Shown: piece by piece, positions 1-23,744 of the stretch | How the letters are laid out: every line of letters begins with the position of its first letter | Position numbering within the stretch: the stretch's first letter is position 1 | Source of the DNA: Magnetococcales bacterium | GTDB taxonomy: Bacteria > Pseudomonadota > Magnetococcia > Magnetococcales > UBA8363 | NCBI GenBank assembly: GCA_015660855.1 | Contig: JACSDG010000028.1 | Coordinates: 8,685 to 72,684 of the forward strand | Reading direction: 5' to 3' | DNA: 64,000 nucleotides | Position numbers and translations under genes: made by a program | The notes under the pieces: model-generated | The model's database searches: none | The model's input: only the letters and a program-made list of their open reading frames with translations | Told to the model about the DNA's origin: nothing

Positions 1-128
1 TCCGCCACCAACGCCGAACAGCCACTCAGGACCGCCAAAACGCTCTTGAAAACCACCATGAACACATTCATGGAAAAGGCGTACCACACCACCTGATACC
101 TGCATTCCGGACAATGGGGGAATTTCAT
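1..128 (-). CDS. mamB: MamB (magnetosome CDF-family iron transporter), first 42 codons only; the gene runs off the left edge
   Basis: Minus-strand ATG at 128..126 overlaps the mamQ stop (ATGA). Translation MKFPHCPECRYQVVWYAFSMNVFMVVFKSVLAVLSGCSALVA fits the MamB N-terminal pattern (MKF..C..C..VVW.AF...FK..L...SG..ALVAD). It sits directly after mamQ. Confidence 0.75.
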   Translation of the reverse strand, partial: MKFPHCPECRYQVVWYAFSMNVFMVVFKSVLAVLSGCSALVA

Positions 129-1048
129 GGAACCACTCCTTTGTCAAAGGCTGTTCCCCCGACCGTTCCAGAAACTTTTTCTGTCCCCGCCTCCGTTTTT
201 TGACCTCCGGCGGCCAGGGGTAGAAGACGTTGGAAAAGCGAAGAAGACAGGTTGGGCAACATCAGTCTGTCCACGTCAGACAGAGACTCAATGGCAAAAT
301 AGTCGTGACGCTTAAAACCGGTAATATTGGCCAGAACGTACCAGGGAAACGAAGTAATCAGGGTATTGAACACTCGGACATCCTCGTTGTAGGCATCTCT
401 CCGACTGATGATTCGGTCCTCGATCTCCACCAGTTTATCCATCAACTTCTGGTAGGTCGTAGAGGATTTAATTTCGGGATATTGTTCCACCACCGCCATG
501 AGCCTGGACAGGGATGCCACCCCTTCCATCCCCACCATGGCCTCGGCTAGGCCCGCACCCCCGACTCCAGAAGCACTCGCCTCGCCCCCCCCTTCCCGGC
601 TCACCTGGGCCCCAACCGGTGCCACAGCCTTATCGCCAGCCTGCTCCTGGCCTGTCATCGTCGCCCGAACATCGGCAACGTGCCGAAACACTTCCTGTTC
701 CAGTGCCGCCTGGTTGAGAGTCAGGTTGATCAGGTTGGTAAAAAGATTGGCCCGACGCTGCATGGTGTCTTCAACATGACCTTTGGCTGAAATAATTTTT
801 TCTTCGAGGGTGATGAAAATATTAAAATTGTACAGCGTTGTTACACCGAAAACAATGATGGAGGCAAAGGACAAAAACAGAACCAATCCTTTGATCTTGA
901 TGACAGAGATTCCCAGTCCCTTGTTTTCCACCTCTTGCCTGTGAAGCTGGCTCAGAAGCCGCTTCATACGGCGCATGCGCTCGGAATGGCTCGATTCCGG
1001 TCCCAGCCCGTCCAACTGTTCAAATGCGTTTTGCGGATGCTCGGCCAC
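125..1048 (-). CDS. mamQ: MamQ (LemA-family magnetosome membrane protein)
   Basis: N-terminal TM helix followed by a LemA core (TMQRRANLFTNLINLT; VEQYPEIKSSTTYQKLMDKLVEIEDRIISRRDAYNEDVRVFNT; FPWYVLA). Immediately upstream of mamB. The track start at 1048 is GTG; in-frame ATG alternatives lie at 976 and 967. Confidence 0.85.
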   Translation of the reverse strand: MAEHPQNAFEQLDGLGPESSHSERMRRMKRLLSQLHRQEVENKGLGISVIKIKGLVLFLSFASIIVFGVTTLYNFNIFITLEEKIISAKGHVEDTMQRRANLFTNLINLTLNQAALEQEVFRHVADVRATMTGQEQAGDKAVAPVGAQVSREGGGEASASGVGGAGLAEAMVGMEGVASLSRLMAVVEQYPEIKSSTTYQKLMDKLVEIEDRIISRRDAYNEDVRVFNTLITSFPWYVLANITGFKRHDYFAIESLSDVDRLMLPNLSSSLFQRLLPLAAGGQKTEAGTEKVSGTVGGTAFDKGVVP

Positions 1049-1132: not shown

Positions 1133-3943
1133 TCACTCCAGGGAGACAGGATATTTTTCCGCATCATCCCTGGCTTCGGCCACTTTCAAATGATGCACCG
1201 CTTCCTTGACCTGCCCCACCGATTGCAGAGAAAAACCCAAGGCACGCCGATACGCCCTGCGCCCAGGTTCCAGGACCACCGCTTCCTTGTAGGCTGAAAC
1301 GGCCTCATCCAGACGATCAATGCAACCAAGAACTTCCCCCAATCGAAACCACAAGGCGGCACGTTGCCCCGGCCGATCCGACCCGCGCTCCAACCCTTTG
1401 CGGATCAATCCTTCCGCCCAGACATACCGCCCGGAACCAATATAGGCCACGATCAAGTCGTCGTCCAGCCATGCCCCGCCCGACCCCTCCAGTTCCCGGG
1501 CTTTTTCCAAAAATCCCAATGCACGGTCAAAGGCTTCCTGTTTCAAATAACACCGCCCCATCCCGGCAAGGACAGCCACATTTTTCTCATCTTTATCCAA
1601 AACCTTGCGATAGCAGAATATCGCATCATAAATCATTCCCTGTTGGAAAAAACGGTGGCCCCGTTCGGTATAATAATGGGTTCGGACCGGCCCTCCCAAG
1701 GATACCAACCCCATGTACCTGTGCACCACCACCTCGGACAATCGACCCAACAACTTGAACACGGAATGCAACATAAAACGCCATTCTTCCAACACGGGAA
1801 CCCGGACAGATGGTCTGGAAGTCGCCACACCACGCGCCGGTTCAAGCACGTCCTCCTGCCCAACGCATCCCCTGCATTCAAACTGTTCGGGCAATCGTTC
1901 TTTTCCAGTTAAAACCGTTCTTTCCGGTTCTTCAACGATGTATCCCCCTTCCAACGATTCCCCCGAGACCGTTTCTCCTCCAACCCATTCCCCCTCTGTA
2001 CCGGGATCCCCTTCGACTTCAACACCATCCTCTCCCACCAACAGGGTCTCTGCAACGCGGTCCCCTTCCAGCAATCCTGCAGAAACCTCATCCCCCGCCA
2101 CCGGCACCAATTCGCAATGATTTCCTTCCTCCACATCCACTTCAAGGTCGTCATCCTGCGTCCGGGCATCCGCGAGTTGGGTTTCTTCGGGGTCAACGCG
2201 ATCCTCTTCCACCCGTTCTTCGACAACGCCCTCCCCTTCCACCAACTCTGCAAAAACCTCGTCCCCCGCCACCGGCTCCAATTCGTAATGATTTCCTTCC
2301 TCCACATCCACATCAAGGTCGTCATTCTGCGTCCGGGCATCCGCAAGTTGGGTTTCTATGGGGTCAACCTCATCCCAATTTTCACCGGCCCGATGAACAC
2401 CTTCCCAGGGATCTTCCTTCGCCGTGGACAGTTTCCAGGGAAACGGCAACGGCGGATCTGAACTCGCCGCACCGGGTACCAAACCCGGACCATCCACAAC
2501 ATCCTCGTCCATCATAGCTTGGCGATGGAGCCTGAAATCGTTCAAAAGGCGCGCCAGGGATTCTCTATGCTCAACCTCTGGGAGTTGAATCGCCAAACTC
2601 TCCGTCGACGCAGTATCCGCCATTTCCCGCAGCGCGGCTCCAACACCATCTCCCCCCGAGACCCCCTCTACTTGCAACGCCGCCGGGACTTCATCCCCTG
2701 TGTTGCTGACATCTTCACCGCCGTCCCCGACAATTTCCACCCCGGAAGGCCGTTCCGTCCACGCCCATTCCCCCGACGTCGGTCCCTGACGCACCGCCAA
2801 CCCCTGCAAAAAATGCCGGGCCGACTCCCCCACAGAAGTCGCCACAGGATTAAAACCTGTCGCCAAACCATTCACCCCCTGGCTTTTTTTTTCCGTCGCC
2901 TCGCCCTTCCGGCCACCACCACCCCGAAAGATTTCCACAGCTTCCATGTCATCCATGGAAGCGACGAACACCCCCTCCCCCACGCGAGTGGACGTTTTTT
3001 GCCCAATATTTCGATTTTTCCCAAAAGACTCCAGCAAACGGACCACATCCTGCCGATCCGGGGAAGAACTCCTGACAGCCAACGGCTGACTTTCCGCAAG
3101 CACGGATCGCCGCCCCTCCTCCCCATCATCGTGGACCAAAAGCCCGGTATCCCCCCCTGACAAAGAGTCGGAAACGGCACCCGGGATCATCCCTGAGAAA
3201 GACAGCGGGGCCTTTGATTGGCCCGATCCTTCACCCCCACCGTTTCGATCCGTTGAACCAACAGGAAATCGAGATGGCACCCTACCCTCCAACTCTTCCT
3301 CCTCCGAAAGGAAATCGGTCCCCTTGGCCCTTCCGCGCTGACGTGCCATGGCACTGAAAAGTTCCAACGGAGTCGGCTCGGCATGAAGATCCCGACGCCG
3401 GACAGGCAGTTCCAATGAATACACATCTTCATTGTCCGCACTCGCCCCCCCCCGTTCCTTTCCCCATCCCGAAACAGAAACCTCCGACGCCCCCACCTCC
3501 CGCACCGGATTGGCATGACCCCGGACAGGTCCAACGGCAAGGACAGGGGGTAATGCCCTAGATGCCAAAGGCAATTTCAATGACGCTTCTTCTTCATTCT
3601 CCGGGAGTGCCTCCGCCACCATCAACGATTGTGACGCCTCCTTGAGCCACTCTCCACGCAACTCCAAGCCTTCACCTTCACGGTCGGACTGGAAAAAATC
3701 TGCCTCTTTCTCCTTGATTGCCCATTCGGTCGAATCTTTTTCCCCCTCTGGCACCTCGGATACGAAACCATCCTCTTCGGTCAGGTCATCCCCGAAACCT
3801 TCCCCTCCGCTGCTTTCGCCCCTTGCAACAGCCTCGGCAAAAGACTGGCGTTTCATCATGGCACCACGAATCATGGAATCCATGCGGTCCATGCGGGCCT
3901 GCCAAAGACTTTCTTCCACATCGGAGTTCAAAGGTTGATCCAT
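1133..3943 (-). CDS. 936-aa acidic low-complexity protein with a C-terminal MamA-like TPR module (giant MamA paralogue)
   Basis: ATG start, long uninterrupted ORF in operon orientation. The C-terminal ~230 aa align with the MamA of this window. Compare FMLHSVFKLLGR...THYYTERGHRFFQQGMIYDAIFCYRKVLDKDEKNVAVLAGMGRCYLKQEAFDRALGFLEKARELEG with FFLHAALHVVKR...LHYYQERGIEYTRRGRYDAAATMLEKVLVEWPADEDTLFHLGFCYLKMDRTQEGIELLERAEALG. The N-terminal ~700 aa are E/D/G-rich and contain a 57-aa tandem repeat. Confidence 0.8.
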   Translation of the reverse strand: MDQPLNSDVEESLWQARMDRMDSMIRGAMMKRQSFAEAVARGESSGGEGFGDDLTEEDGFVSEVPEGEKDSTEWAIKEKEADFFQSDREGEGLELRGEWLKEASQSLMVAEALPENEEEASLKLPLASRALPPVLAVGPVRGHANPVREVGASEVSVSGWGKERGGASADNEDVYSLELPVRRRDLHAEPTPLELFSAMARQRGRAKGTDFLSEEEELEGRVPSRFPVGSTDRNGGGEGSGQSKAPLSFSGMIPGAVSDSLSGGDTGLLVHDDGEEGRRSVLAESQPLAVRSSSPDRQDVVRLLESFGKNRNIGQKTSTRVGEGVFVASMDDMEAVEIFRGGGGRKGEATEKKSQGVNGLATGFNPVATSVGESARHFLQGLAVRQGPTSGEWAWTERPSGVEIVGDGGEDVSNTGDEVPAALQVEGVSGGDGVGAALREMADTASTESLAIQLPEVEHRESLARLLNDFRLHRQAMMDEDVVDGPGLVPGAASSDPPLPFPWKLSTAKEDPWEGVHRAGENWDEVDPIETQLADARTQNDDLDVDVEEGNHYELEPVAGDEVFAELVEGEGVVEERVEEDRVDPEETQLADARTQDDDLEVDVEEGNHCELVPVAGDEVSAGLLEGDRVAETLLVGEDGVEVEGDPGTEGEWVGGETVSGESLEGGYIVEEPERTVLTGKERLPEQFECRGCVGQEDVLEPARGVATSRPSVRVPVLEEWRFMLHSVFKLLGRLSEVVVHRYMGLVSLGGPVRTHYYTERGHRFFQQGMIYDAIFCYRKVLDKDEKNVAVLAGMGRCYLKQEAFDRALGFLEKARELEGSGGAWLDDDLIVAYIGSGRYVWAEGLIRKGLERGSDRPGQRAALWFRLGEVLGCIDRLDEAVSAYKEAVVLEPGRRAYRRALGFSLQSVGQVKEAVHHLKVAEARDDAEKYPVSLE
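2055..2368 (-). repeat. 171-bp (57-codon) tandem duplication inside the giant MamA-like gene
   Basis: GTCAAC landmarks at 2192..2197 and 2363..2368 are exactly 171 bp apart. The encoded units are VDPIETQLADARTQNDDLDVDVEEGNHYELEPVAGDEVFAELVEGE and VDPEETQLADARTQDDDLEVDVEEGNHCELVPVAGDEVSAGLLEGD. Confidence 0.9.
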
Positions 3944-3994
3944 AAGGTCGCGGGTGGCATAAAGACTGGTGAATTTCGGAACATTATTCCCTTA

Positions 3995-4035
3995 GGGCGA
4001 AAACCAAAACATTGGGTGCTCTCGCCCCCAAGCCC
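3995..4035 (+). repeat. Nested-hairpin intergenic repeat (NH-REP), partial copy
   Basis: gggcgaaaaccaaaacattgggtgctctcgcccccaagccc matches the H1-linker-H2 part of the full copies at 5113, 8582 and 32047. Confidence 0.7.
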
Positions 4036-4171
4036 TCACTGCGATGAAGCTTTTTGTCCAAATTAAACTTTGGTATATCTGCGAAAAAATCTCCTTAATG
4101 CCAACGGTAAACCGCGAAAAATATGTAAAAACTTCGCTCTGTTGGGAAATTCAGGTTGGTAGAAATGGGGA

Positions 4172-5110
4172 CTATAGTTTCACGGCCCACGTAGTTATAA
4201 TGTCATGCAAATTTTTACGAATCCGTATCTTTCCCAGCCTGGAATGTTCAACCAACTTGAAACAATGATAAAACAATCCACGCTGCTTTCCCTCCGACAA
4301 ACGGAAAAATATTGTCTTTAGAAACAAGATATGGGAAATATATTTGTGGGAAAGCACAGAAAAACCACTTTCAACCAATGCGAAGTCAAGAGTTTTTTTA
4401 TTGAAGTAGGAAAGATGAACCGGCGGTACAATTGCATAATATTTCGAGCCGGTTATGCGAGCGTACAGGCATGAAATATTGTGAACTTTGACGACGATCA
4501 GCCCTCCAGGCTTCAGGAGGTCACGGCATTTTCTTAAGCTTGCCAAAGGGGCAGGCATGTGATCAAGCACATCCTGCAAGGTAATGACATCGAAAGTTTC
4601 ATTGGAAAAACCGGCATCTTCCAAATTTCCGTTAAAAACACGATCACCATACTTTATTTGTGCTTTTTGGGCAGCAACGGGTTCGAGTTCCACGCCATGG
4701 CATTGCCAACCGTGCATTACGTCCAGAAACTGTCCTTCGGAACATCCAACATCCAATAACTGTCCACCCGGTTTCATAGCCTGAATGATATCTCTCAATG
4801 ATTCATAATAATAGTTAAGATTTACCCGATTTTCCACCTCACCATAAACTTGGTCAGTCCCCTGTTGTTTGTAATACGTGGCCAACGCATCAGGAGACCA
4901 ATGTTCCCAGACAAACACGAACGAACAGGTTCGACATTGGACGATATGGTGGTCGTTGACCTTGAATTTTTTTTTTATATTCGTTGCACCACACAGATAA
5001 CAAGCTGGATGTAGAGAATGTTTTTGCGGCACAGGCTGCATAACAAATACGTCCCCTCGTATTGAGCACTTGGTTGGGCCAATCTGACCCTGATCTTGGT
5101 TCATGAACAT
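4172..5110 (-). CDS. Class I SAM-dependent methyltransferase with an N-terminal Zn-ribbon
   Basis: CYLCG...CRTCSF Cys4 ribbon, then SAM motif I LLDVGCSEGQFLD and the post-I acidic residue (HGVELEP). The start is moved to ATG 5110 (MFMNQDQ) because the 43 upstream codons of the track ORF (to 5239) are the translated NH-REP copy at 5113..5225. The gene is AT-rich. Confidence 0.7.
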   Translation of the reverse strand: MFMNQDQGQIGPTKCSIRGDVFVMQPVPQKHSLHPACYLCGATNIKKKFKVNDHHIVQCRTCSFVFVWEHWSPDALATYYKQQGTDQVYGEVENRVNLNYYYESLRDIIQAMKPGGQLLDVGCSEGQFLDVMHGWQCHGVELEPVAAQKAQIKYGDRVFNGNLEDAGFSNETFDVITLQDVLDHMPAPLASLRKCRDLLKPGGLIVVKVHNISCLYARITGSKYYAIVPPVHLSYFNKKTLDFALVESGFSVLSHKYISHILFLKTIFFRLSEGKQRGLFYHCFKLVEHSRLGKIRIRKNLHDIITTWAVKL

Positions 5111-5112
5111 GG

Positions 5113-5225
5113 TGCCCTGCGGGCAAAAACCAAAACCTTGGGGGCTCTGCCTCCAAACCTCCGCCGTGGGGGATGATCCCCCCGGACCTTCGCAATAATT
5201 CTGCCAAACTTTATTTTCCGATACA
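5113..5225 (+). repeat. NH-REP, full copy (H1 TGCCCtgcGGGCA, H2 TTGGGGGCtctGCCTCCAA, H3 GGGGGATGATCCCCC, A/T-rich tail)
   Basis: Near-identical to 8582..8698 and 32047..32161. Three consecutive short palindromes followed by gcaataattctgccaaactttattttccgata. Confidence 0.9.
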
Positions 5226-5305
5226 CGTAGCCTATGCAAGTGAATTCAAAAGGTTAAACATGACAAAGTAGAACGAGTCTCTCCACACTCCGATTGTCCT
5301 GTATT

Positions 5306-7804
5306 TCACCACCCACGTCTACTGAAATCTTTCAAATTTGGCCCCAAATGCTCCCCAAATTTTGACGGATGGCCCCATCGGAAGGAACAGCGGATGCTTT
5401 GTGTATAATGATGTAGTAGAAGAAGAATAACGCACGCCAGAGAAAACAGAGAAATCCACAAACCGATCCTAAAATAAAGTGGTTGGTAGTGAAATCTGAC
5501 GGAATGTTTCCCGGAGGGCAGGGAAATGGCGCGGAAATAGGCGTATGCCTGATAGATTGGGACAGGTATGCCATCCACGTAGGCGGTCCATCCCGGATCA
5601 TAAAGGTCGGAAAGAATAAGGATACGATTGTTGGTGTTTTGTGTTTTTATGAGAACCTCCCTAGGTGCGTAGGATTCTATGATGACCTTGTCCTTGGAGG
5701 TTTCAGGACCCAATTTCTCGGTCGAAGGGGTTTCCAGAAGGTAGACCGTTTTTTCCGGGACGAAATGTTCGCCTTTCATGACTGCAACAATGTCGGATTC
5801 GGAACCCAACTGCTGAAAACTCCCCACGGTGAAGGCCCGTGGGAGAACTTGGGGATTTTGATAAACCTTGAACTTGCCATCATGCACCATAGGGAACCGA
5901 TTCTGGTTCAACTCATTGGAATGAGTCAACAAATATTTCACATTGCCAAGACTGAGGAAACCGGGGTTTGCTGGTTGGTCCATCAGGGTGACCCGATTAT
6001 TCAATGCAGGTGGAAACTCGTACACTCCCGCTGTAGAATACCATCTAAAGTAGACATTTGTTACGTCTGGCATGATCCAAGGCATTCCGTCTATGGGCAC
6101 TATCGAGAAACGATCTGACAATAAATTTTCCTTTAAAAACTTGAAGGTTTCATCTTCTGGGGTGAAATTGTGCTCCTTCAAATCAATGACCGGAGCATAG
6201 GAATGGAAGAAAGTTCCCAGATCAAGGCATGTCAGTAAAACAATCCCGATACCGATGATTTTTACCGGAATTATTTTACGGTAATGCAAGAAAAGAATGA
6301 GGCCAAAAAAGAACACAATAAATATAGTTATTAATAGTTTCAGATTATCAAAATTGAAATAAGACAACGTGTTTGCGATCCTGAGCATGTTATAATCAGA
6401 CATGGGAAAAAGGCTTCCGCCTGTCGAGGCTTCGGCGTAGTGGGTGGCTATGGAAATGATTTCTGATCTATTCAAGTTGATAACGACGAAAATAGTGATC
6501 CAGGCTGTGACCAGCAAGAAACCGAGTTTAAACATCCACCGTGCAAATTTCAGGACGAACCCTTTGTTTTGAGGTTGCAGGAGGTAGTCTAGACCAGCCC
6601 CCCCCAGGAAGGCGATACAAAGTGTAAAAAACACGAGAAACCTTGCGTAGAGATACATCACAATTGGCGTCAAAAAAACTGTAAAAATTATTATGAATCC
6701 TGTATTTTTAAAATAATTAAACTTAGAGTTACTTGTCAGAGTGCCTGAACTTACCATAGCCAGAAGTAAAGGTATGAGTCCGGAATACCCAAAGACAAAG
6801 TCAGACCATTTACCACCAACGAGTGAAACTGGATTCAAGATACTGTGGTGACCAACAAAATGGGGTATGGCAAGAGACACCAGGAATGGAATTCGCAAAA
6901 TAGACTCAGGGAAATGATTAAGCCAGTTTGGGAAATCGAAAGAAACATGATTCGTAGTTCCTCGTATAAGAAGTTCAAAGAAAGTTATAAAACCTACAGC
7001 AGACAGTAATATACTTATTGTATAGGCACCAGAAAGATTGACAAAGATAACCCGTAATAATCTCCGGTCGCTTTTGTTTGAAAATAAGGTTCTTGAGAAC
7101 ATCCATAGAGTGAGGAAGAATCCGATCTGTAGTATGTTTTGGGCATTGCCAGCCAAGTGAGAAAAAGCCAGAAACAAACCTGTTGCTGCGATGTTGACAA
7201 CTCGGGATTTTTCGTGCAGGCTTTTTTCGAGGTAAAGGATGATGAATGGAACCCATAGAATTGAGCCTAAGGCCCAATAAAAAGAGTGCAGAGCGAAAAA
7301 TGAACCGTTGAACATAAAGGCGATACCACCAAGCGTTGCTCCCATGGAGGAAATTCCGAAATATCTCATGAGAATGAACATACCTATACCCGCTGTCCAT
7401 AGTTCAACTGCAGCGATGACAACATCCATATACATATCGGCTGAGAGAAGATAAAAAACGTAAAATACATCAAGAAAAACGGGAATTGCGAACGAAATAT
7501 TTGGTGTCCCGAAGTTATTGTATGGATTCCAGATGGGAAGTTCAAAATTGGAGATGCTTTCGGCAATAAAACGCTGCCATGGAAACATTTGCCGAACAAG
7601 ATCCCAACTATAATGATATTGGACAGGCACAAACTGGCCATCACCCCAGGGGAGTGACCATTTCAGCAAGTCAAACGGGACGTAGGTTTTTCCAAAGAAG
7701 AGATAAGGGGATAAAAATAAAATAATGATCAGTGCAAAAAAGATTCCCGAGGCAAAAAAAAACTGTTTGACCTGTTCATAAGTTCGACCTTGTCGCGATA
7801 CCAA
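5306..7804 (-). CDS. YfhO-family polytopic membrane protein (GT-C type glycosyltransferase-like)
   Basis: 832 aa with many TM segments. N-terminal loop motif SWDLVRQMFPWQRFIAESISNFELPIWNPYNNFGTP. C-terminal extracytoplasmic block PGWTAYVDGIPVPIYQAYAYFRAISLPSGKHSVRFHYQP followed by a terminal TM helix, as in YfhO family members. The only start available is TTG 7804, with no clear SD. Very AT-rich. Confidence 0.72.
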   Translation of the reverse strand: MVSRQGRTYEQVKQFFFASGIFFALIIILFLSPYLFFGKTYVPFDLLKWSLPWGDGQFVPVQYHYSWDLVRQMFPWQRFIAESISNFELPIWNPYNNFGTPNISFAIPVFLDVFYVFYLLSADMYMDVVIAAVELWTAGIGMFILMRYFGISSMGATLGGIAFMFNGSFFALHSFYWALGSILWVPFIILYLEKSLHEKSRVVNIAATGLFLAFSHLAGNAQNILQIGFFLTLWMFSRTLFSNKSDRRLLRVIFVNLSGAYTISILLSAVGFITFFELLIRGTTNHVSFDFPNWLNHFPESILRIPFLVSLAIPHFVGHHSILNPVSLVGGKWSDFVFGYSGLIPLLLAMVSSGTLTSNSKFNYFKNTGFIIIFTVFLTPIVMYLYARFLVFFTLCIAFLGGAGLDYLLQPQNKGFVLKFARWMFKLGFLLVTAWITIFVVINLNRSEIISIATHYAEASTGGSLFPMSDYNMLRIANTLSYFNFDNLKLLITIFIVFFFGLILFLHYRKIIPVKIIGIGIVLLTCLDLGTFFHSYAPVIDLKEHNFTPEDETFKFLKENLLSDRFSIVPIDGMPWIMPDVTNVYFRWYSTAGVYEFPPALNNRVTLMDQPANPGFLSLGNVKYLLTHSNELNQNRFPMVHDGKFKVYQNPQVLPRAFTVGSFQQLGSESDIVAVMKGEHFVPEKTVYLLETPSTEKLGPETSKDKVIIESYAPREVLIKTQNTNNRILILSDLYDPGWTAYVDGIPVPIYQAYAYFRAISLPSGKHSVRFHYQPLYFRIGLWISLFSLACVILLLLHHYTQSIRCSFRWGHPSKFGEHLGPNLKDFSRRGW

Positions 7805-7818
7805 AAAATATTGGACTT

Positions 7819-8547
7819 TTAGGCTTTATTAAACACTCTAATCTTGAAAATTTTCCACAAAGAATAAATGACGGGTAAAACATTTTTTAACTTAAGGATG
7901 GCACTTTCTTCCCGCCCCCGCGCCTCGCTTGAATGCTCTCGCACCGGAATATGGACGTGTACATAGCTCAAACCCCTGCGGAGTAAGTGGCAGAGAACCT
8001 CGCATTGAAATGCCGGACTAGAATAGTATGCAGGCGCGGTGCATACATGTTTCCGAGGAAATAAAATAATGCCATTGTAATATAAAACTTTATTACTGCT
8101 GATAATATTGACGGTTGCTGTGAACAATCTTGAAATAAATACGCGACTGCGAGATCTTGGGTCCAAGTCACCACTGTGATGGGAAATAACAATATCCTTC
8201 TCGTAACGCCTCTCCAGAATATCGCGAATTCCTTTAGCCATCACCACGTTGTCTCCGGGAACGTAAATGATCCATTGACCTCGCCCCAAGAGAGCCGCAA
8301 GGAGAAAAGAAAAACCAACCCCACGGTTTATTCCGTTCCGCAAAACCATTATGTCGGTATTGCGACGAGTGCGTTTGGTCTTGAGAAGGTTCTCGTAGGT
8401 TCCGTCCGAGGAACCATCGTCAACGGCGACGATCTCGTAAGAAACCAAATCGGTACACGCGGCGCAAATCGTCTCTACTGTATCGGCTGCATGTTTTTCC
8501 TCATTCATACATGGAACAAAAAAAGTTATCTCAGGGCAGGTATCCAC
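7819..8547 (-). CDS. Family 2 glycosyltransferase (polyprenyl-phosphate sugar synthase-like, DPM1/CsbB-like catalytic domain)
   Basis: ITFFVPCMNEEKH...YEIVAVDDGSSDGT...YVPGDNV are GT2 (GT-A fold, DxD-like) signatures. GTG start at 8547 preceded by AGGGA. No obvious C-terminal TM helices. Confidence 0.78.
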   Translation of the reverse strand: MDTCPEITFFVPCMNEEKHAADTVETICAACTDLVSYEIVAVDDGSSDGTYENLLKTKRTRRNTDIMVLRNGINRGVGFSFLLAALLGRGQWIIYVPGDNVVMAKGIRDILERRYEKDIVISHHSGDLDPRSRSRVFISRLFTATVNIISSNKVLYYNGIILFPRKHVCTAPAYYSSPAFQCEVLCHLLRRGLSYVHVHIPVREHSSEARGREESAILKLKNVLPVIYSLWKIFKIRVFNKA

Positions 8548-8581
8548 TCTTTGGTCCCTATGCTAAAAACTCCGGTCACAA

Positions 8582-8698
8582 TGCCCTTCGGGCAAAAATC
8601 AAAACCTTAGAGGCTCCGCCTCCAAACCGCAGCACGGGGAGGATAATCCCCCCCTTAACCCCCGCAATTTTTTTTTCCAAACTTTATTTTTCCGAAAC
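8582..8698 (+). repeat. NH-REP, full copy
   Basis: tgcccttcgggcaaaaatcaaaaccttagaggctccgcctccaaacc...ggataatccccccc...cgcaatttttttttccaaactttatttttccga. It ends 2 nt before the mamA stop codon. Confidence 0.9.
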
Positions 8699-8699: not shown

Positions 8700-9362
8700 T
8701 CAAAAAGAAGACCGCCCCTCATCCAGACTCGCCGCCTTTTTAAACTGCGCCACCGACTCTTCATGCCGCCCCATCTGCTCCAGCGTGAACCCCAGAGAAC
8801 GATAAACCTTGGGTTCGTCCGGGCGAACCCCAATCGCCTTCTTAAAGTAGGACACCGCCCGATCATACTGTTCCAAGTTATCCAACCCCAAAGCCATACG
8901 ATAGTTAAGATGAAAATTTTGCGGATCTTCCTCAAGGGCTTTTTCCAATACGGCTACCGCCTTGGCATATTCCTTGGTTTGCAGAAAGGCCATCCCCAGG
9001 ATGGATCGAACCCGGATGCCACCGCGCCCCAGTGCCTCAGCCCGTTCCAAAAGCTCAATACCCTCCTGGGTACGATCCATTTTCAGATAACAAAAACCCA
9101 GATGAAACAAGGTATCCTCATCCGCCGGCCATTCCACGAGAACCTTTTCCAACATGGTAGCGGCGGCATCGTAGCGACCACGCCGGGTATACTCTATCCC
9201 CCGCTCCTGGTAATAGTGCAGCCGCAATTCGGAATCCACCACAAAAAACCGATTGTAGCTTTCGGTGGCTGAGATAAAAGCCCGCTTGACCACATGCAAG
9301 GCGGCATGGAGAAAAAATCCGACATCGGACATTGGATTTGGGCTGCGGTGCTCGGGTCTCAT
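8700..9362 (-). CDS. mamA: MamA (TPR magnetosome-associated protein)
   Basis: Five TPR-like repeats. The C-terminus KKAIGVRPDEPKVYRSLGFTLEQMGRHEESVAQFKKAASLDEG closely follows the conserved MamA C-terminus (...YEQMGRHEEALPHFKKANELDEG). ATG preceded by AAGGGA. Confidence 0.9.
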   Translation of the reverse strand: MRPEHRSPNPMSDVGFFLHAALHVVKRAFISATESYNRFFVVDSELRLHYYQERGIEYTRRGRYDAAATMLEKVLVEWPADEDTLFHLGFCYLKMDRTQEGIELLERAEALGRGGIRVRSILGMAFLQTKEYAKAVAVLEKALEEDPQNFHLNYRMALGLDNLEQYDRAVSYFKKAIGVRPDEPKVYRSLGFTLEQMGRHEESVAQFKKAASLDEGRSSF

Positions 9363-9396
9363 TGGTCACATCCCTTTTCAAACGAATCCATGGTTT

Positions 9397-9449
9397 AAAA
9401 AACCGGGGGTTTTGCCCCCAAACCTCCACCGAGGAGGATGATCCCCCCG
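9397..9449 (+). repeat. NH-REP, partial copy (H2 variant + degenerate H3)
   Basis: aaaaaaccgggggttttgcccccaaacctccaccgaggaggatgatccccccg, in the mamP-mamA intergenic space. Confidence 0.7.
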
Positions 9450-10279: not shown

Positions 10280-12189
10280 GACAAAATCATTCGCGCAGAA
10301 ATAAAAAACATCAAAAATGCATACATCCAGCGCAAGGTGTTCAGCGGAGCCACCGTCGTCAACCATGCGCCAATAAAACCACCAAGATAAGCCCCTGGGG
10401 TCAGGATGATCGCCAAAATCAACGGTGTGGCCACGGTAAAGGCACCACTGGTCACCCCATGGATCATGGCCACCAACGATCCCACAATGGATGCAAAGAA
10501 AACCAATACGGCACTGTTGGCAATGGCTCGACGTAGCGGAGCGCGCAGAATGTAGCGCTGCAAAGGAACCTCGATGACGCCTCCCGTTATGCCGAGAATG
10601 CCACTGATCATCCCCATGGGCAACCCCAGCAACCCGTGGGCCAGAGTGGCGTTCCCCACCAGGGACGAAGGATAGGGCCCCGTTGGCTCACTGGCACCAA
10701 TGATGCGCTGCAAATCACCCAGCAAACCCTTACGTTCCCTTGATTCGGAAATTTCCACCAACATTTTTATGGAAAGAAAAAAGGCAAAAATCCCCAGGAG
10801 GAGGCGAATAACCGATGCGTTCAGAACGTTGCCGACAAAATAGCCCAGCACCACCCCCACCATGGCCCACGGTACCATGGGTTGGATATCCGACCAGCGA
10901 TAGACGTTGTCCCGACGGTAGCGCAGGGACGCCCCTCCATACATGAAAATGTTGGTGATATAGGCCACAGGCCGCACCAGCAACAGCCCATAACCAAACA
11001 CCGACATCAAACCGATAACCTTGATGATGCCACCCCCCATGGTCATCATGCCACCACATAATCCAGAAAAAAATCCCAACAACAACAAACCCAGAAAAGT
11101 AGGGACGGGAAACCCGAGAATACGCTGCGTCGTCGCGTGACTCTGGCCCCCACCGGCGTTAATGTCCGGCATCCCTTGATACGCGGGCAACTGATGCCCC
11201 AATTGCGCTTCCAGCATGGCCTTGGCCCGGTTCCACCAATCGTCGGCCCTTCGGGGGGGACGTTCAATTCCCGGAGTGGATGGCTGCGGCACGGCCATGG
11301 CTACCGGAACCGACTGGGGCACAATACCTGCCCCCGGTTGTTGATTGATCTGGACCTGGGGAGGAAAATCCACCACATCCTGAAAATGCGTCACGATAAC
11401 GTGCGAAGGGAGGGCATAACCCAAAAACAGGTTACCCGGGGCCTGAATCAACAAATTGATTCCCAACAGACGGCCCTTATCATCCACCAAAGGCCCCCCC
11501 ACCATGGCCCAATGGTTGACCGCGCTGGTGGTCAAAAGGTGGGTCAACTCGGTGGAACCCACCCGAACCGGACTTCTGGAAACCTCCGCATCGACAATCC
11601 CGACGTTACGCAAAACCGACGAACCGTCCGGGTCACCCCAGGCCACCACCGGAGTGCCGGCCAGCAACTGCCGCGAATCTCCCGGCAATAAATAAGGAAA
11701 AATATCCTTGGAGACTATTTTCACCAACGCCAGATCGTGTTGGGCCACCGACTTGACCAACTGACCCGAATATTGCCTGGGGCCCATCGGCGTCTGCACG
11801 CGAATAAAAATTTCCTTCAGCCCAGCCAGGAGGTGGTTTGCCGTCATCACATGGCCATTGGCAGTAATCACCACCCCCGACCCCACCGAAACAAACTTAT
11901 TCTTTCCCCCCGTGTCCGCCACGGTCCCAGCAATGTTCACCAAGGCCGCCCGCACCATGGTGTCAACGGGATCATAACTCGCCGCCGCCGGCAGAGCCGC
12001 CACCTGGACCGTGGGAACGCCGGCATTCGACAACGCCGCCAAGGATCTCAGCTCATCCCGATGTTCCTTGATGAGATGAAACCCCCAGGCAAAAGTACCG
12101 AGAACCAGCAAGGTCAAAATGATGGCCGGGGTGTACCAATGTTGCCGGCAAAAAGGCGGAGAAATGGATCTCTTTGCGGATTTGGCCAC
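10276..12189 (-). CDS. mamO: MamO (degenerate trypsin-like domain + TauE/SafE-like membrane domain)
   Basis: The protease-fold half has His (MTANHLL) and Asp (HDLALVKI), but the GNSGGP serine box reads AMVGGP, so there is no nucleophile. The C-terminal half is a polytopic TauE-like domain. GTG start preceded by GGGAG. Confidence 0.85.
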
Positions 12190-12192
12190 GGT

Positions 12193-12309
12193 TCACTCCC
12201 ATCCGAAGGTCAGAAGGTTGGCAAAAAATTCGCTCCCCAAAACACCACCGATCCCCACCGCATCCGGTCCCTCCACAAAACCCGCCAATCCTCGAAACAG
12301 GTCATCCAT
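12193..12309 (-). CDS. Candidate 38-codon ORF exactly filling the mamM-mamO gap
   Basis: ATG 12309 lies 4 nt after the mamM stop, and TGA 12195..12193 lies 3 nt before the mamO GTG. Product MDDLFRGLAGFVEGPDAVGIGGVLGSEFFANLLTFGWE. It is below the 60-aa cut-off of the ORF track. No homology recognised. Confidence 0.35.
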   Translation of the reverse strand: MDDLFRGLAGFVEGPDAVGIGGVLGSEFFANLLTFGWE

Positions 12310-12313
12310 CGCC

Positions 12314-13276
12314 TCATTCACCCTCATTGCCCTCCTTGGACTGGGACAAACCCAAGGCTGCTAAACTTTGCTGCCGCAGTTTGGCAAACGGTTCCTCGCT
12401 GTCCTTGTGGGAACGAAACTGCACACCCACATCGCCCACATGGGGAATGGATGTGACCAGGGCTTCCTCAACCCGCATGGCCAAAGCCTTGGCCTTAACC
12501 AACGTCAGCTCCGGATCAACTCCGATAATCAAGGTAATCCACAATTCCTGGCCCACCTGGCGGGTGCGAACCTCTCCCACATCCTGAACCCCCTGAATCT
12601 GCAACGCCTCCTTGCGAATACGCTCCACCACTTTCTTTGGTGCCGCCGTATCCATAAGACCGCTGAAGGCATTCCAGAATATTTCCCCCGACAGATAAAT
12701 CAAATGCACGCTTTCCAACATGGCGACGGCGGTATCCAACCAGGGCATCCCCAGATAATGGGATCCCACAATGCCCACAGCCACGGCCATCGAAGAATAT
12801 CCGTCGGTCAGGTGATGCTTGGACAACAACTTCACCACCGGCGAATTGATCTCGTGGCTGACGCAATGGGTATAGCGGTGCATGAACCAGTTGACCCCAA
12901 CCGACAGCAACGCCGTCCACAAAGCGATCAGGTGCGGCGCGTTATGATTGCCGTCCAGTAGGTTGCCCGCAGAAAAATAAAACAACAGCCCCGTCACAAT
13001 CAGCAACACAAGGCTTATTGCAAGGGAAAGCAAAAACTCCACCTTGCCATGACCAAAGGGGTGTTCCTGATCCAACGGCTTCCTGGAAACTTTAAGACCG
13101 ACGATGATAACAGACGAGGTAACCACATCTTTGGCCGAATACAAACCATCGGCCACCAGGGCGTGCGAACCAGAAAAGGTTCCGATAAACAGCTTGAGCA
13201 CCGACAGAACCAAGTTGGTTGCGAGCCCAATCCAGCCGACCCCCTCGTAACAGACGACGCACTTGGAATATCTCAT
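12314..13276 (-). CDS. mamM: MamM (magnetosome CDF-family transporter)
   Basis: MRYSKCVVCYEGVGWIGLA...ALVADGLYSAKDV...PLDQEHPFGHGKVEFLLSL...GVDPELT follows MamM closely (MRKSGCAVCSRSIGWVGLA...DAEHPYGHGKVEF...GVDPEHT). Confidence 0.88.
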   Translation of the reverse strand: MRYSKCVVCYEGVGWIGLATNLVLSVLKLFIGTFSGSHALVADGLYSAKDVVTSSVIIVGLKVSRKPLDQEHPFGHGKVEFLLSLAISLVLLIVTGLLFYFSAGNLLDGNHNAPHLIALWTALLSVGVNWFMHRYTHCVSHEINSPVVKLLSKHHLTDGYSSMAVAVGIVGSHYLGMPWLDTAVAMLESVHLIYLSGEIFWNAFSGLMDTAAPKKVVERIRKEALQIQGVQDVGEVRTRQVGQELWITLIIGVDPELTLVKAKALAMRVEEALVTSIPHVGDVGVQFRSHKDSEEPFAKLRQQSLAALGLSQSKEGNEGE

Positions 13277-13316
13277 GGGTCAACCGAAACCTGCCCTGAA
13301 AAAGTAACGAACGCGA

Positions 13317-13449
13317 TGCCCTGCGGGCAAAAACAACAACCTTGGGCGCTCTCGCCCCCAAACCCCCATAGGCAATAAAGCTTTTTTGTTTTAATTCAAA
13401 AACAAAACCTTGGGGCGCTGCCCCAAACCCCGCCGGGGGGGATGATCCC
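13317..13449 (+). repeat. NH-REP, composite copy (H1, H2 variant, AT-rich spacer, second H2 variant, H3)
   Basis: Reverse-complement match to the composite copy at 49787..49953, including the spacer ccataggcaataaagcttttttgttttaattcaaaaac. It overlaps the last ~19 codons of mamL. Confidence 0.85.
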
Positions 13450-13687
13450 AATCATCGGCATATTCATCCGACTTTTTGCTTCCCGCACGCACGATAAAAT
13501 AAAAAATGGCCAGCGCAAACCCGGCAATAAACGCCCCCGCCAACGCCAAAATAACCGGCATTTCAACCGCATCACCAAAAATAAACCTTACCTCGGTCCC
13601 GTGCATGTTCTGAGAGGCAAAGATTAAAAGGAATATGGCAAAAATCAGTGATATGACAAGCCTGACCACGCGACAAATTCCTCGCAA
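13391..13687 (-). CDS. mamL: MamL-like small magnetosome membrane protein
   Basis: Two TM helices (RVVRLVISLIFAIFLLIFASQN...VEMPVILALAGAFIAGFALAIFYFIV) as in MamL, positioned between mamF and mamM. The track start 13687 is TTG. GTG at 13669 has a GAGGA 9 nt upstream. The C-terminal WDHPPRRGLGQRPKVLFLN is encoded by the NH-REP copy. Confidence 0.65.
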   Translation of the reverse strand: MRGICRVVRLVISLIFAIFLLIFASQNMHGTEVRFIFGDAVEMPVILALAGAFIAGFALAIFYFIVRAGSKKSDEYADDWDHPPRRGLGQRPKVLFLN

Positions 13688-13802
13688 TCAAAAAGATGAT
13701 GCCAACAACCCTCACTTTCAGGCCCACGGACTTCCGCCCATCGGAGGAAATACCATCCCGCCAACGCCCCCGCCGCAACCACAGCCCATCCTGGACCACC
13801 AG

Positions 13803-14117
13803 TCAAAGTTTTTCAGCCAATTGTCCCACAAAAGGGAACCGCCAGGTTCTACCCAGAAATACCGCAACCAATCCCACTACCGACAAAACGAAGCAAAGAA
13901 GGCTGGACACCTGGAAAAAAACCCGGCCCACGCCAGGAATCACCAAGCTGAACACCGCCAGAACTTCCCATATCCAAAGAACCACCCCCTGCCGCGCGTG
14001 GAAGCGCACAAAAGGATCGATTTTCCCCAGGACCAACGGCACCAAAGCCAATATTCCCAGATAACTCATCGCTGCGGTAATTTGTGTTGCGGTTGCAATC
14101 GGTCTTCTCATGATCAT
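13803..14117 (-). CDS. mamF: MamF/MmsF-family magnetosome membrane protein
   Basis: YLGILALVPLVL...FVRFHARQGVVLWIW...VVGLVAVFLGRTWRFPFVGQ matches the MamF/MmsF (DUF4870-type) pattern. ATG 14117 is preceded by GAGGGTGAG. A GTG alternative at 14201 would overlap the mamK stop. Confidence 0.72.
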   Translation of the reverse strand: MIMRRPIATATQITAAMSYLGILALVPLVLGKIDPFVRFHARQGVVLWIWEVLAVFSLVIPGVGRVFFQVSSLLCFVLSVVGLVAVFLGRTWRFPFVGQLAEKL

Positions 14118-19330: not shown

Positions 19331-19939
19331 ATGGCCAACGTCGTAAATACCCAAACAGGTGGAGTCCCTCAAGGGGCTGCCGTTGCCCAGAAAGCACCTG
19401 CGATCAAACCCGCCCCGGGAGTAGAACAAGAAGCTCCCGAAGGAGCCAAGGCGGCCAAAGCGGCCACAGGGGGAAAGGGTGCCGTCGGCAAGGCGGCCGG
19501 AGGCAAGGGGGCGGCGACTCAAGTACCTGCCAACCTCCCCCCTGGAGCCGAGTGGGAGGCCCCTGAAGGGGCCAAAGCGGCCAAAATGACCGCCGCAAAA
19601 ACCGCCACTGGAAAAGGGACTGCCGGTGCCATTGCAACCAAAACCACCACGGGAACCGTAGCCACCAGCAAGGCCGCCACCGGAAAAAGCTTGGCTGCAA
19701 CCGGGGCCGTCGCCACTGGAAAAGGGGCCCTGGCTGCCGCCCCCGGAAGCCTCGCCGTCAAGGGAATCACCTCGGGCGGTTCCTTTTGGTCTGGCAGCCT
19801 GCCCGCGCTGGGCATCAGCCTGGGCGGTCTCACCCCCATTCTCACCGCCGGTGCCGCCGCCGCTCTGGGGGTCGGAATCTATAGCTATATCAAAAACAAA
19901 AAAAAATATATCAACGAACTGGATGACGCACTTAGTTGA
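19331..19939 (+). CDS. mms6: Mms6-like protein (A/K/G/T-rich region, GL-rich TM segment, acidic C-terminus)
   Basis: The C-terminus LPALGISLGGLTPILTAGAAAALGVGIYSYIKNKKKYINELDDALS has the Mms6 architecture (Gly-Leu-rich hydrophobic stretch, basic patch, acidic tail). Internal repeat EAPEGAKAAK x2. ATG 19331 is preceded by AAGGGG; upstream in-frame ATGs lie at 19292 and 19310. Confidence 0.6.
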   Translation: MANVVNTQTGGVPQGAAVAQKAPAIKPAPGVEQEAPEGAKAAKAATGGKGAVGKAAGGKGAATQVPANLPPGAEWEAPEGAKAAKMTAAKTATGKGTAGAIATKTTTGTVATSKAATGKSLAATGAVATGKGALAAAPGSLAVKGITSGGSFWSGSLPALGISLGGLTPILTAGAAAALGVGIYSYIKNKKKYINELDDALS

Positions 19940-19961
19940 CCCCTATCTGGAGAATGTGTTC

Positions 19962-20294
19962 ATGGCCAACCGTTCCTGGCTGGTAACAAAATCGATGTCA
20001 CCAAGGGCCAAAATCCTCGCCCTGTTCAGCTACATGGGAGTTTTGTGCCTTATCCCGCTGCTCTTCAACAACGACCATAACGACTATGTCCGGTTTCATT
20101 CCCGACAGGGGCTGGTTCTGTGGGTCTGGGGGGTGTTGGCCATCTTCAGTCTCTACATCCCGGTCCTGGGGGGATTCATCTTCAGCTTTTCAGTGCTGAT
20201 GATTGCCCTTTTTTCCATCGCCGGCGTCGTTTCAGTCATTTTCTCCCGGGCCTGGAAACTCCCTTTTATCGGTCAGGTTGCAGTCCTCCTGTAG
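19962..20294 (+). CDS. mmsF: MmsF (MamF/MmsF family)
   Basis: YMGVLCLIPLLF...YVRFHSRQGLVLWVW...VVSVIFSRAWKLPFIGQ, paralogous to the mamF product in this window. ATG 19962 is preceded by GGAGA and lies 22 nt after the mms6 stop. Confidence 0.78.
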   Translation: MANRSWLVTKSMSPRAKILALFSYMGVLCLIPLLFNNDHNDYVRFHSRQGLVLWVWGVLAIFSLYIPVLGGFIFSFSVLMIALFSIAGVVSVIFSRAWKLPFIGQVAVLL

Positions 20295-20324: not shown

Positions 20325-20433
20325 AAAGGTTTTAATTATTGCGGGGGTCCGGGGGGAGGTTCTCCCCCCGGCGGAGGTTTGGAGGCAGAGCCTCCAAGGT
20401 TTTTCTTTTGACTTTGATTTTGACTTTGATTTT
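20325..20433 (-). repeat. NH-REP, full copy in reverse orientation plus (GACTTTGATTTT)x2
   Basis: attattgcgggggtccggggggaggttctccccccggcggaggtttggaggcagagcctccaaggtttt is the reverse complement of the tail-H3-H2 modules. It overlaps the 3-prime end of the SPOR-domain ORF. Confidence 0.88.
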
Positions 20434-21294
20434 ACGGCGCAACACCTCCCCCGCCGCCGCCCTGTCACCATAAGGACCGGAAAACACACAACTCATGGCT
20501 CCATCCCGAATCTGCTTTCTGTAAATCGACGCCGCAAAAGGACGCACCTGTTTACCGCGATCAACCGCATTGCGCGCTTGGGAAAAACACCCCAACGAAA
20601 TAAAAAAACCCCGTTTTTGATCCTCGACAGGCACCGGATTGAAAACCCCGTCCTCCAACCCCAATAAACCCGCGCTCTGTGGTTGCATCACAGATTTTTC
20701 CTTGGCAGTTTCCACCTGTGTTGGCAAAACCTGGGCCACCTTGACGGAGACACCACCTCCATCACCAGCGGCCTTATCTGCCACCTCCACAACATCCGTC
20801 ACCACCGGGACAGAAGCCTGTGCCACCTGGACCGAACCTTCCACGTCCCCACCAACCACCCTCAAACTGTCCAACCTTGGCCCCTGCAATGCCGCTTCCT
20901 GAACAAAGGCTTCCAGCCGTTCATCAATGTCATGACGCAACTGCGACCAATTCAACTCCCTGCTTTCCTTGATGTGGTCCAATTTATCGCCCAAACTCAC
21001 GATCATACGTCCCAGACGCTCGTCGCGATGCCTGAAATTTCTGTCCAACTTTTCCACTAGGCGTTCGGCCAATCCATCGACCGCGCCATCGCCTCCCCCG
21101 GTCTGCCCATCCTTTGGCCCCCCCACCGCAACCAAACCCGGAGGTGACGTGCTCGGCACCACAGTCTTTTTCTGTTCCAGCATGACTGCGGCCGATAGCA
21201 GGATAAACCCGATAAACAGGGATCCGGCAAACACTTCCAGGATTGTTATGGAAAATAATCCGTCAGAGAAACGGACGGTATTCAAGGCGGCCAT
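20332..21294 (-). CDS. Membrane-anchored protein with a C-terminal SPOR-like domain
   Basis: N-terminal TM (ITILEVFAGSLFIGFILLSAAVML) and a C-terminal SPOR-like block (GFFISLGCFSQARNAVDRGKQVRPFAASIYRKQIRDGAMSCVFSGPYGDRAAAGEVLRR). The last ~34 codons (KIKVKIKVKRKTLEALPPNLRRGENLPPDPRNN) are translated NH-REP sequence. Confidence 0.6.
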   Translation of the reverse strand: MAALNTVRFSDGLFSITILEVFAGSLFIGFILLSAAVMLEQKKTVVPSTSPPGLVAVGGPKDGQTGGGDGAVDGLAERLVEKLDRNFRHRDERLGRMIVSLGDKLDHIKESRELNWSQLRHDIDERLEAFVQEAALQGPRLDSLRVVGGDVEGSVQVAQASVPVVTDVVEVADKAAGDGGGVSVKVAQVLPTQVETAKEKSVMQPQSAGLLGLEDGVFNPVPVEDQKRGFFISLGCFSQARNAVDRGKQVRPFAASIYRKQIRDGAMSCVFSGPYGDRAAAGEVLRRKIKVKIKVKRKTLEALPPNLRRGENLPPDPRNN

Positions 21295-21636: not shown

Positions 21637-21674
21637 TTCCAATCACACAAGTCACGACTCATTTGTAAAATTAA

Positions 21675-22346: not shown

Positions 22347-23744
<1,398 letters not shown>

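Follow-up and report, generated by a model that had tools for sequence, protein, structure and literature searches.

A putative envelope glycan-modification cassette, probably a lineage-specific passenger, in the mamAB operon of a Magnetococcales bacterium

The magnetosome operon considered here lies on a 64,000-nucleotide stretch of a Magnetococcales genome (assembly GCA_015660855.1, contig JACSDG010000028.1, positions 8,685 to 72,684), which is called the window and whose coordinates are used throughout. A mamAB-type operon is found on its minus strand in the order MamH, MamI, MamE, MamK, MamF-like, MamL-like, MamM, MamO, MamP and MamA. Past MamA follow three genes which do not belong to the mam set, namely a glycosyltransferase of family 2 (GT2), a YfhO-like membrane protein and an S-adenosylmethionine (SAM) methyltransferase, then the gene of a protein of 936 amino acids (P936) and finally MamQ. 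The three genes form an AT-rich insertion of about 4.5 kb, with mamQ and the remaining operon genes lying downstream of it, and this insertion is probably a lineage-specific passenger, an envelope glycan-modification module placed in the mamA-P936 spacer of mamAB. In the direction of transcription the site comprises the following genes and repeat elements (REP):

8700..9362, minus strand: mamA, the upstream border of the insertion (NF040959 MamA, 213 bits at a cut-off of 200)
8573..8654, minus strand: REP in the mamA-GT2 spacer (nhmmer E 1e-19), with three short GC hairpins and a terminator-like hairpin at 8626-8606
7819..8547, minus strand: GT2, a short soluble protein of 242 amino acids with a GTG start (PF00535, 49.9 bits against 23.3, residues 9-121)
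5306..7804, minus strand: predicted YfhO-family GT-C protein of 832 amino acids, with a TTG start 14 nt after the GT2 stop (PF09586, 57.0 bits against 28.5)
5103..5184, minus strand: REP in the YfhO-methyltransferase spacer (nhmmer E 2.6e-23), with the ATG of the methyltransferase in its 3' end
4172..5110, minus strand: class-I SAM methyltransferase with a Zn-ribbon N-terminus, 312 amino acids from the ATG at 5110 (Methyltransf_23, 82.6 bits against 27)
3976..4048, minus strand: REP in the methyltransferase-P936 spacer (nhmmer E 5.9e-16)
1133..3943, minus strand: P936, acidic, the downstream border of the insertion (MamA model E 1e-22, residues 720-922)
125..1048, minus strand: mamQ (NF040966 MamQ, 248.6 bits)

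The four spacers from mamA to P936 measure 152, 14, 195 and 228 nt, and none of them is large enough for a further gene. The three cassette genes are free of frameshifts and stops over 4.2 kb of coding sequence, and no open reading frame (ORF) of a transposase or integrase type lies within 3.9-8.7 kb. A preliminary description of this DNA had reported three co-oriented genes interrupting the mam operon, and they are present, intact, on the minus strand at the coordinates it gave. It had also placed them between mamA and mamQ; the cassette does not adjoin mamQ, however, as the gene of P936 intervenes. The insertion site is thus seen as the mamA-P936 spacer, and the cassette appears to be limited to one lineage.

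The source is a metagenome-assembled genome (MAG), and REPs at the junctions could mislead assemblers, which would speak for an envelope locus chimerically joined to a magnetosome cluster. However, the same arrangement with both junctions recurs at 99.98-100 % nucleotide identity in three other assemblies. For this reason the contig is not regarded as chimeric, and the chance of an assembly artefact is practically negligible. The three assemblies are:

L001: ENA megahit contig, spanning mamI to P936
L002: NCBI MAG contig DUZR01000403 of GCA_013349385.1
L003: Logan contig

The cassette had been judged by eye to be more AT-rich than the flanking mam genes, and the base composition bears this out. 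Its three genes have a GC content of 42-45 % compared with 53-57 % in the mam genes (whole window 52.6 %), the windowed GC is 0.39-0.46 across 4000-8250 and 0.54-0.60 on both flanks, and the GC at third codon positions (GC3) amounts to 0.44-0.47 against 0.58-0.67. Low GC was nevertheless dropped as decisive proof of a recent foreign origin, since in two further genomes of Magnetococcales the homologous pair stands out from its flanks by the same AT-richness: the GT2-YfhO pair of the sister MAG DCbin2 has 39 % GC between flanks of 52-55 %, and the homolog in a third MAG 42 % in surroundings of 56 %. Since the pair is AT-rich wherever it was found, its composition does not date the insertion.

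The protein of 832 amino acids is, on the strength of a structural model, best taken as a YfhO-family GT-C enzyme. The PF09586 match, which is above its cut-off, covers only residues 629-785 (model positions 675-835), and a precomputed match to this family exists for all but one of 15 relatives. Thirteen hydrophobic segments are present. In the AlphaFold2 model built from a 16-sequence alignment (pLDDT 78, pTM 0.81) a helical membrane domain is followed by a beta-rich domain at about 540-775 and a final transmembrane (TM) helix. When this model was compared with the PDB by Foldseek, AftD (1e-6), ArnT (1.5e-5, TM-score 0.52 on the target), AglB (1e-4) and AftA (4e-4) came first and Pmt1/2, DPY19 and EmbA/B/C next, so that all top matches are GT-C enzymes. 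Only the fold comparison worked in this respect; a profile search of the YfhO alignment against the PDB sequences gave nothing at E<=1. GT-C enzymes carry a catalytic acidic residue in the first extracytoplasmic loop (PMC8035078). This is matched by Asp45 (D45) in the first extracytoplasmic loop after TM1, which is kept in 14 of 14 aligned relatives and is followed by a conserved PLWNP motif. The family placement of the preliminary description is therefore upheld by the profile score together with the GT-C fold. Among the cassette proteins, weak NCBIfam matches to PgfS, PgfM1 and PgfM2 also occur, with 25-31 bits at cut-offs of 500-1500.

The GT2 carries a DDGSSDGT motif. Among solved structures it comes closest to ArnC (9hwj, E 4e-5 over residues 6-211) and GtrB (5ekp, E 5e-4), two polyprenyl-phosphate sugar synthases. 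Neither a TM helix nor a hydrophobic segment is found in its 242 residues. It is hence without the C-terminal TM anchor typical of GtrB/CsbB and resembles the soluble variants of the GacI/DPM1 type. The DxD motif is replaced by GDN, and the position aligned to D-A-D of ArnC reads P-G-D. As GDN is kept in the homologs of loci L004 (the DCbin2 pair, 62 % identity) and L074 (a metagenomic contig, 35 % identity, homologous over the full length), it is likely to be a trait of the subfamily. Gene callers start the protein at a later ATG (229 amino acids; window 8509-8547) and so lose the conserved first strand ITFFVPC; the same two homologs support the upstream GTG start. The NCBIfam equivalog scores are far under their cut-offs (ArnC 26 bits/529, PgfS 24.9/500, PpgS 16/370). 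The protein is a putative polyprenyl-phosphate sugar synthase, and because the similarity is weak and the equivalog scores are this low, the lipid-carrier role leans mainly on gene context.

Part of this context is the coupling to the GT-C gene, with a 14-nt spacer here and an 8-nt overlap in L004. A large polytopic ORF lies within 4 kb of short-GT2 relatives in 26 of 80 metagenomic loci, and in several of these one open frame covers both the GT2 and a membrane domain. Such single frames of 730-920 codons are seen in L091 (989-3745), L094 (5983-8652), L095 (1893-4571) and L097 (5630-7831), and further ones in L099 (907-3108), L123 (2407-4998) and L133 (5980-8562). These apparent fusions, all of them open frames taken from stop to stop, would support a functional link of the 'GDN' GT2 subfamily to a membrane partner.

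The third gene had been described as a Zn-ribbon methyltransferase, and this identity is confirmed by the Methyltransf_23 score and by a CxxC...CxxC Zn-ribbon at the N-terminus of the translation, which also contains the glycine-rich motif I LDVGCSEG. The models Methyltransf_23, _11, _12 and _25 score 82.6, 60.7, 45.1 and 42.9 bits, all above gathering, and the best solved relative is 3cc8 (E 2e-13). The family is very large and environmental, with 223 relatives found, several of them in glycan or sugar-nucleotide loci: one beside DegT and FdtA genes (L072), one downstream of a DegT gene (L155, 61 % identity), one in the arrangement GT2-MTase-MTase-PMT_2 (L074; MTase, methyltransferase) and one in the arrangement MTase-MTase-GT2-867-aa protein on another metagenomic contig. 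The automated JGI name 'benzoquinol methylase' finds no support in these contexts. An obligatory partnership with the GT2 family was rejected as well, because the methyltransferase accompanies it in no more than 2 of 80 loci when searched with tblastn and in 9 of 42 with a hidden Markov model (HMM); it is rather an occasional accessory.

Only two close relatives of the YfhO-like protein, P0002 and P0003, were obtained from a search of 5.8 billion proteins, and when the alignment of the close YfhO clade was run against JGI metagenome contigs, no relatives came up. P0002 (53 % identity) occurs in DCbin2 and three other assemblies. It is preceded, with the overlap mentioned, by the GT2 that is 62 % identical to the one in the window, and the pair adjoins murC-murB-ddl-ftsQ-ftsA-ftsZ-lpxC. 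P0003 (50 % identity) stands beside a FliB_C-domain gene, a PMT_2 GT-C of 913 amino acids and a TPR protein. Judged by their neighbours, the contexts of the nearest relatives appear to be of envelope, division or flagellar type. In Magnetococcales the flagellins are heavily glycosylated and the flagella have a sheath of glycoprotein (PMC7175107), which makes extracytoplasmic acceptors plausible.

For comparison 63 magnetosome clusters from species-representative genomes were retrieved with a MamP alignment, together with as much as 10 kb of either flank, as far as the contigs reach (1.02 Mb). Most are from Magnetococcales; the rest includes Nitrospinota, SAR324, Gamma- and Deltaproteobacteria and Planctomycetota. 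By tblastn the GT2, YfhO and methyltransferase genes were detected in 0 of the 63, matches being confined to the three contigs of the same organism, and family HMMs run against all ORFs of the clusters gave nothing at E<=0.01, while all positive controls were recovered. In most clusters mamQ comes after mamA within about 50-100 nt. In the closest clade (MamP 59-70 % identical) a single ORF homologous to P936, of 682-1106 amino acids, occupies the mamA-mamQ gap (L009 3785-6181, L011 11725-14787, L012 11575-14481, L013 11595-14588, L014 6569-9664, L016 11309-13801, L019 11636-14956 and L026 1875-3923). L015 has an ORF of 844 amino acids in this position (11446-13980), which shows no tblastn match to P936. 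The magnetosome contig of DCbin2 (L010; MamP 70 %, MamK 95 %) has no cassette in its mamO-mamA stretch, the part that is kept in order.

P936 seems to be the product of a magnetosome gene specific to a single Magnetococcales clade, a kind of 'long MamA paralog'. It is acidic, has a MamA-like TPR C-terminus and no TM segment, and its N-terminal ~700 residues match no family. Inside the gene there is a tandem duplication of 171 nt with 89 % identity (window 2053-2375), which encodes an acidic segment of 57 residues, DP(I/E)ETQLADARTQ(N/D)DDL(D/E)VDVEEGNH... On L010 (PEAO01000070, 3750-6406) mamO-mamP-mamA are followed by mamM and mamK on the opposite strand, which points to a rearrangement of the cluster or else to faulty scaffolding of the DCbin2 MAG.

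These comparisons bear on the proposal of a lumen-side glycosylation activity belonging to the organelle. According to it, a horizontally mobile GT2/YfhO/methyltransferase module was captured by mamAB, which gives co-regulation; the GT-C enzyme in the magnetosome membrane would decorate lipids or the lumen-facing domains of Mam proteins, whose side of the membrane corresponds topologically to the periplasm, with a (methylated) sugar, and the methyltransferase would tune this sugar. The co-oriented position inside mamAB with its short spacers and without a transposase fits such a co-option, as do the three intact genes with their conserved motifs and the recurrence of the arrangement in four assemblies. 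The YfhO family also includes protein O-glycosyltransferases, to which the weak PgfM1/PgfM2 matches lead (bioRxiv 10.1101/2022.10.10.511621). On the other hand, the cassette is missing from 63 of 63 other magnetosome clusters including those of the closest clade, a result which the preliminary description had itself listed among those that would speak against its interpretation; the nearest homologs stand in envelope/division and flagellar-type contexts, and the methyltransferase family in glycan loci. The neighbouring P936 has no TM segment; like MamA it presumably resides in the cytoplasm and would not serve as an acceptor. In the literature that could be searched, no relevant paper on a glycosylation module in magnetosome clusters or on a magnetosome glycosyltransferase was found, and the text of Uzun et al. 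(2020) contains neither 'glycosyl' nor 'methyltransferase'. A dedicated organelle function is accordingly held to be very unlikely.

REP copies at both borders and inside the cassette had been pointed out before. They are indeed there, but they are not special to it, which weakens the argument drawn from them. The unit of about 70-80 nt has three short GC hairpins and a consensus containing ...GGGGGGATCATCCCCC..GGAGGTTTGGGGGCAGAGCCCCCAAGGTTTTGGTTTTTGCCCGAAGGGCAT, and one unit sits in each of the three longer cassette spacers. A profile search with nhmmer, which replaced a strict pattern search of the loci that was too narrow, found 12 copies across the window. Besides the three listed above, these are arranged relative to the mam genes as follows:

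54460-54490, 49885-49956, 49810-49869 and 32038-32118: REPs in housekeeping regions
21580-21642 and 20351-20412: REPs upstream of the mam operon
19123-17843, minus strand: MamH
17538-15277, minus strand: MamE
15235-14198, minus strand: MamK
13397-13449 and 13307-13377: double REP upstream of mamM
13276-12314, minus strand: MamM
12189-10276, minus strand: MamO
10279-9488, minus strand: MamP
9387-9449: REP between mamP and mamA

Within the mam operon all copies are oriented with transcription. No REP was found in the magnetosome loci of the closest relatives or around the dcw-linked GT2-YfhO pair, and weak cousins were seen only in L032, L035 and L053 among the other loci. Canonical mam junctions as well as housekeeping regions are among the sites of the 12 copies. 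The REPs are therefore a family spread over the genome of the host organism and do not form a boundary signature of the cassette. Cassette borders or a mobile-element signature were rejected as their meaning on the same grounds, together with the lack of a transposase or integrase in 3.9-8.7 kb. As a conjecture, they may have offered homology for recombination. The 3' end of the element carries an ATG (..GGGCACCATGTTC..; window 5104-5110 and 3976-3990), and since the probable start codon of the methyltransferase at 5110 sits inside a REP, the element may have supplied or replaced its translation start region. At the double REP upstream of mamM (window 13449/13450) the ENA contig L001 has 61 extra bases (4295-4355). 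The extra stretch reflects either an indel polymorphism linked to the REP or a difference between the assemblies, and it hints that REPs are still dynamic.

Terminator-like hairpins in the REPs at 8626-8606 and 5149-5131, the variant DxD motif (GDN) of the GT2 and a cassette GC3 far from that of the host could point to a silent or decaying hitch-hiker, i.e. a cassette that is not productively expressed or whose GT2 is inactive, and whose excision has not happened yet. Against it stand the conservation of GDN in both homologs, which makes it a family trait, and the undisturbed coding sequence. The predicted REP folds are moreover no more stable than those of shuffled sequences, the total of terminator-like sites in the scan is not above chance, and the same hairpins lie between canonical mam genes (mamP/mamA, upstream of mamM), where strong terminators would not be compatible with a working operon. 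A role of the REP spacers as strong terminators was rejected for these reasons, and decay of the cassette is regarded as quite unlikely. A promoter scan yielded 16 sites versus 12.7 +/- 3.4 expected, most of them in the AT-rich cassette, and is uninformative. Because the cassette genes are intact and co-oriented and because the same REP hairpins occur between canonical mam genes, transcription from the mamAB promoter probably reads through.

The organisation of a GT2 with a YfhO-type protein had been interpreted as the gene logic of extracytoplasmic glycosylation via a polyprenyl-phosphate sugar. This interpretation gains support from the families, the GT-C fold, D45 and a review of such systems, in which the polyprenyl-phosphate sugar is the product of a GT-A enzyme, is translocated by a flippase and finally gives up its sugar through a GT-C enzyme (PMC8035078). 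Applied to the cassette, the soluble GT2 would load a sugar onto polyprenyl phosphate at the cytoplasmic face, and the SAM methyltransferase would methylate this sugar in its nucleotide-bound or lipid-linked form. In Haloferax N-glycosylation AglP comparably methylates a dolichol-phosphate-linked glycan. A flippase encoded elsewhere would carry the lipid-linked sugar over the membrane, where the YfhO-type GT-C enzyme may pass it to an extracytoplasmic acceptor, e.g. lipopolysaccharide (LPS)/O-antigen or a glycoprotein of the surface or the flagellar sheath. Transcripts that start at the mamAB promoter would run through the cassette to P936, mamQ and further genes. In this scheme we infer the polyprenyl-phosphate donor and the acceptor, what the methyl group does, the co-transcription and the passenger status.

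Several points weigh against a passenger module of this kind. A membrane anchor as in CsbB/GtrB is missing from the GT2, whose DxD motif is replaced by GDN, and owing to the weak similarity of the GT2 to polyprenyl-phosphate sugar synthases the lipid-carrier step is mainly contextual. No gene for a flippase of the GtrA/Wzx type was found in the cassette or among the window ORFs scanned, nor a small ORF of that kind with 3-4 TM segments. The insertion is present in one lineage only. Furthermore, the cassette is intact, co-oriented and tightly packed in an operon whose downstream genes from mamQ onward are needed for magnetosomes; the cassette is therefore probably expressed together with the organelle genes, and a pure passenger needs no such coupling.

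Between a passenger and a dedicated organelle module stands an incidental dual action, in which a general periplasm-facing envelope glycosyltransferase also modifies whatever the magnetosome invaginations expose, for the simple reason that these arise from the inner membrane and may remain connected to it, without a dedicated organelle role. The modelled GT-C topology, by which both D45 and the C-terminal domain rich in beta structure would face away from the cytoplasm, is in line with it, as are the probable expression by mamAB read-through and the fact that magnetosome membranes derive from the cytoplasmic membrane (PMC4902198). It shares, however, the non-conservation in other magnetosome clusters and is considered unlikely. 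The lineage-specific passenger insertion remains the probable explanation of the locus.

Among known systems the cassette can be compared first with CsbB/YfhO (+GtcA) of Bacillus subtilis, Staphylococcus aureus and Listeria, where GT2 and YfhO-family GT-C genes are adjacent as well (PMC5836110; PMC8035078). Further likenesses are the GT-C fold, whose first extracytoplasmic loop holds an acidic residue that is conserved, the PF09586 domain at the C-terminus and a flippase that is not linked to the pair, gtcA of B. subtilis being located elsewhere (PMC8035078). In contrast, the host here is a diderm without teichoic acids, C-terminal TM helices are missing from the GT2 of 242 amino acids, the sequence match of the 832-residue protein to the YfhO model is confined to ~160 residues in the C-terminal part of that protein, and an additional SAM methyltransferase as well as the position inside a magnetosome operon are peculiar to the cassette. 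An anchor-less short GT2 together with a polytopic GT-C enzyme is known from GacI/GacJ/GacL, which makes the GlcNAc side chain of the S. pyogenes rhamnose polysaccharide and in which the short GT-A enzyme acts with a separate small membrane protein and the GT-C enzyme (PMC8035078). The likeness is one of gene architecture; a GacJ-like partner was not identified here, and the GT-C enzyme is of YfhO type, not PMT_2 type.

A third comparison concerns compact, horizontally mobile, low-GC cassettes of Gram-negative bacteria. The Gtr systems (GtrA/GtrB/GtrV) of Shigella and Salmonella, which glucosylate the O-antigen, and ArnC/ArnT, which modify lipid A, decorate LPS in the periplasm by means of undecaprenyl-phosphate sugars. 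The GT2 finds its nearest solved relatives in ArnC and GtrB, and for the GT-C protein ArnT ranks high among the structural matches; the similarities reach E 1e-4 to 1e-5 only, a gtrA gene is missing and the GT-C enzyme belongs to another family. In the Pgf machinery of Streptococcus mutans a GT2 (PgfS) and YfhO-type enzymes (PgfM1/PgfM2) act on proteins, so the YfhO family is not limited to polymer acceptors, given that this machinery O-glycosylates proteins. The scores to it are as low as stated above, the cassette contains no epimerase, and the hosts are unrelated. Homologous components also occur in metagenomic modules (L074 and one further contig), which combine a full-length homologous GDN-type GT2 (35 %), Zn-ribbon methyltransferases (51-54 %) and an adjoining large candidate membrane glycosyltransferase. 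All of these modules are uncharacterised, they have two methyltransferases instead of one, and their GT-C protein is of PMT_2 type or unassigned, not YfhO. The cassette is best read as an uncharacterised GT-A/GT-C envelope glycosylation system in an unusual genomic position.

With it, a small group of YfhO-type GT-C enzymes from diderms is defined, an uncharacterised clade within Magnetococcales whose partner is an anchor-less 'GDN' GT2. If the insertion is a passenger, core mamAB, usually seen as tightly conserved, has tolerated 4.5 kb of foreign DNA and REPs at several mam junctions. The locus would then be a natural experiment on magnetosome operon plasticity and read-through, with envelope genes hitch-hiking on an organelle promoter. 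If co-option should prove true after all, this would be the first glycosylation step tied to the biogenesis programme of a bacterial organelle and would open a glycobiology of the magnetosome membrane.

Some other features of the window were observed outside the insertion. About 9 kb upstream of the mam operon start, at 28408-30697 on the minus strand, a NotI-like restriction endonuclease (321 amino acids) overlaps a Dcm-type cytosine-5 DNA methyltransferase (461 amino acids) in a patch of 45 % GC, forming a type II restriction-modification system. On the plus strand, at 22365-27373, are encoded a haem-copper oxidase subunit I-like protein (COX1, E 1e-78; NorB-like), a NorQ-like AAA ATPase with weak matches to GvpN/MadB, a ferredoxin membrane protein of the NapH type and a VWA protein (NorD-like). 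This NorB/NorQ/NorD-like group is the immediate neighbour of the magnetosome cluster, with an intervening spacer of 39-43 % GC which contains REPs. Just upstream of mamH an ORF of 320 amino acids (20332-21294, minus strand) and one of 147 amino acids with three TM segments (19851-20294, plus strand) have no Pfam/NCBIfam match; they may be lineage-specific magnetosome genes or spurious ORFs.

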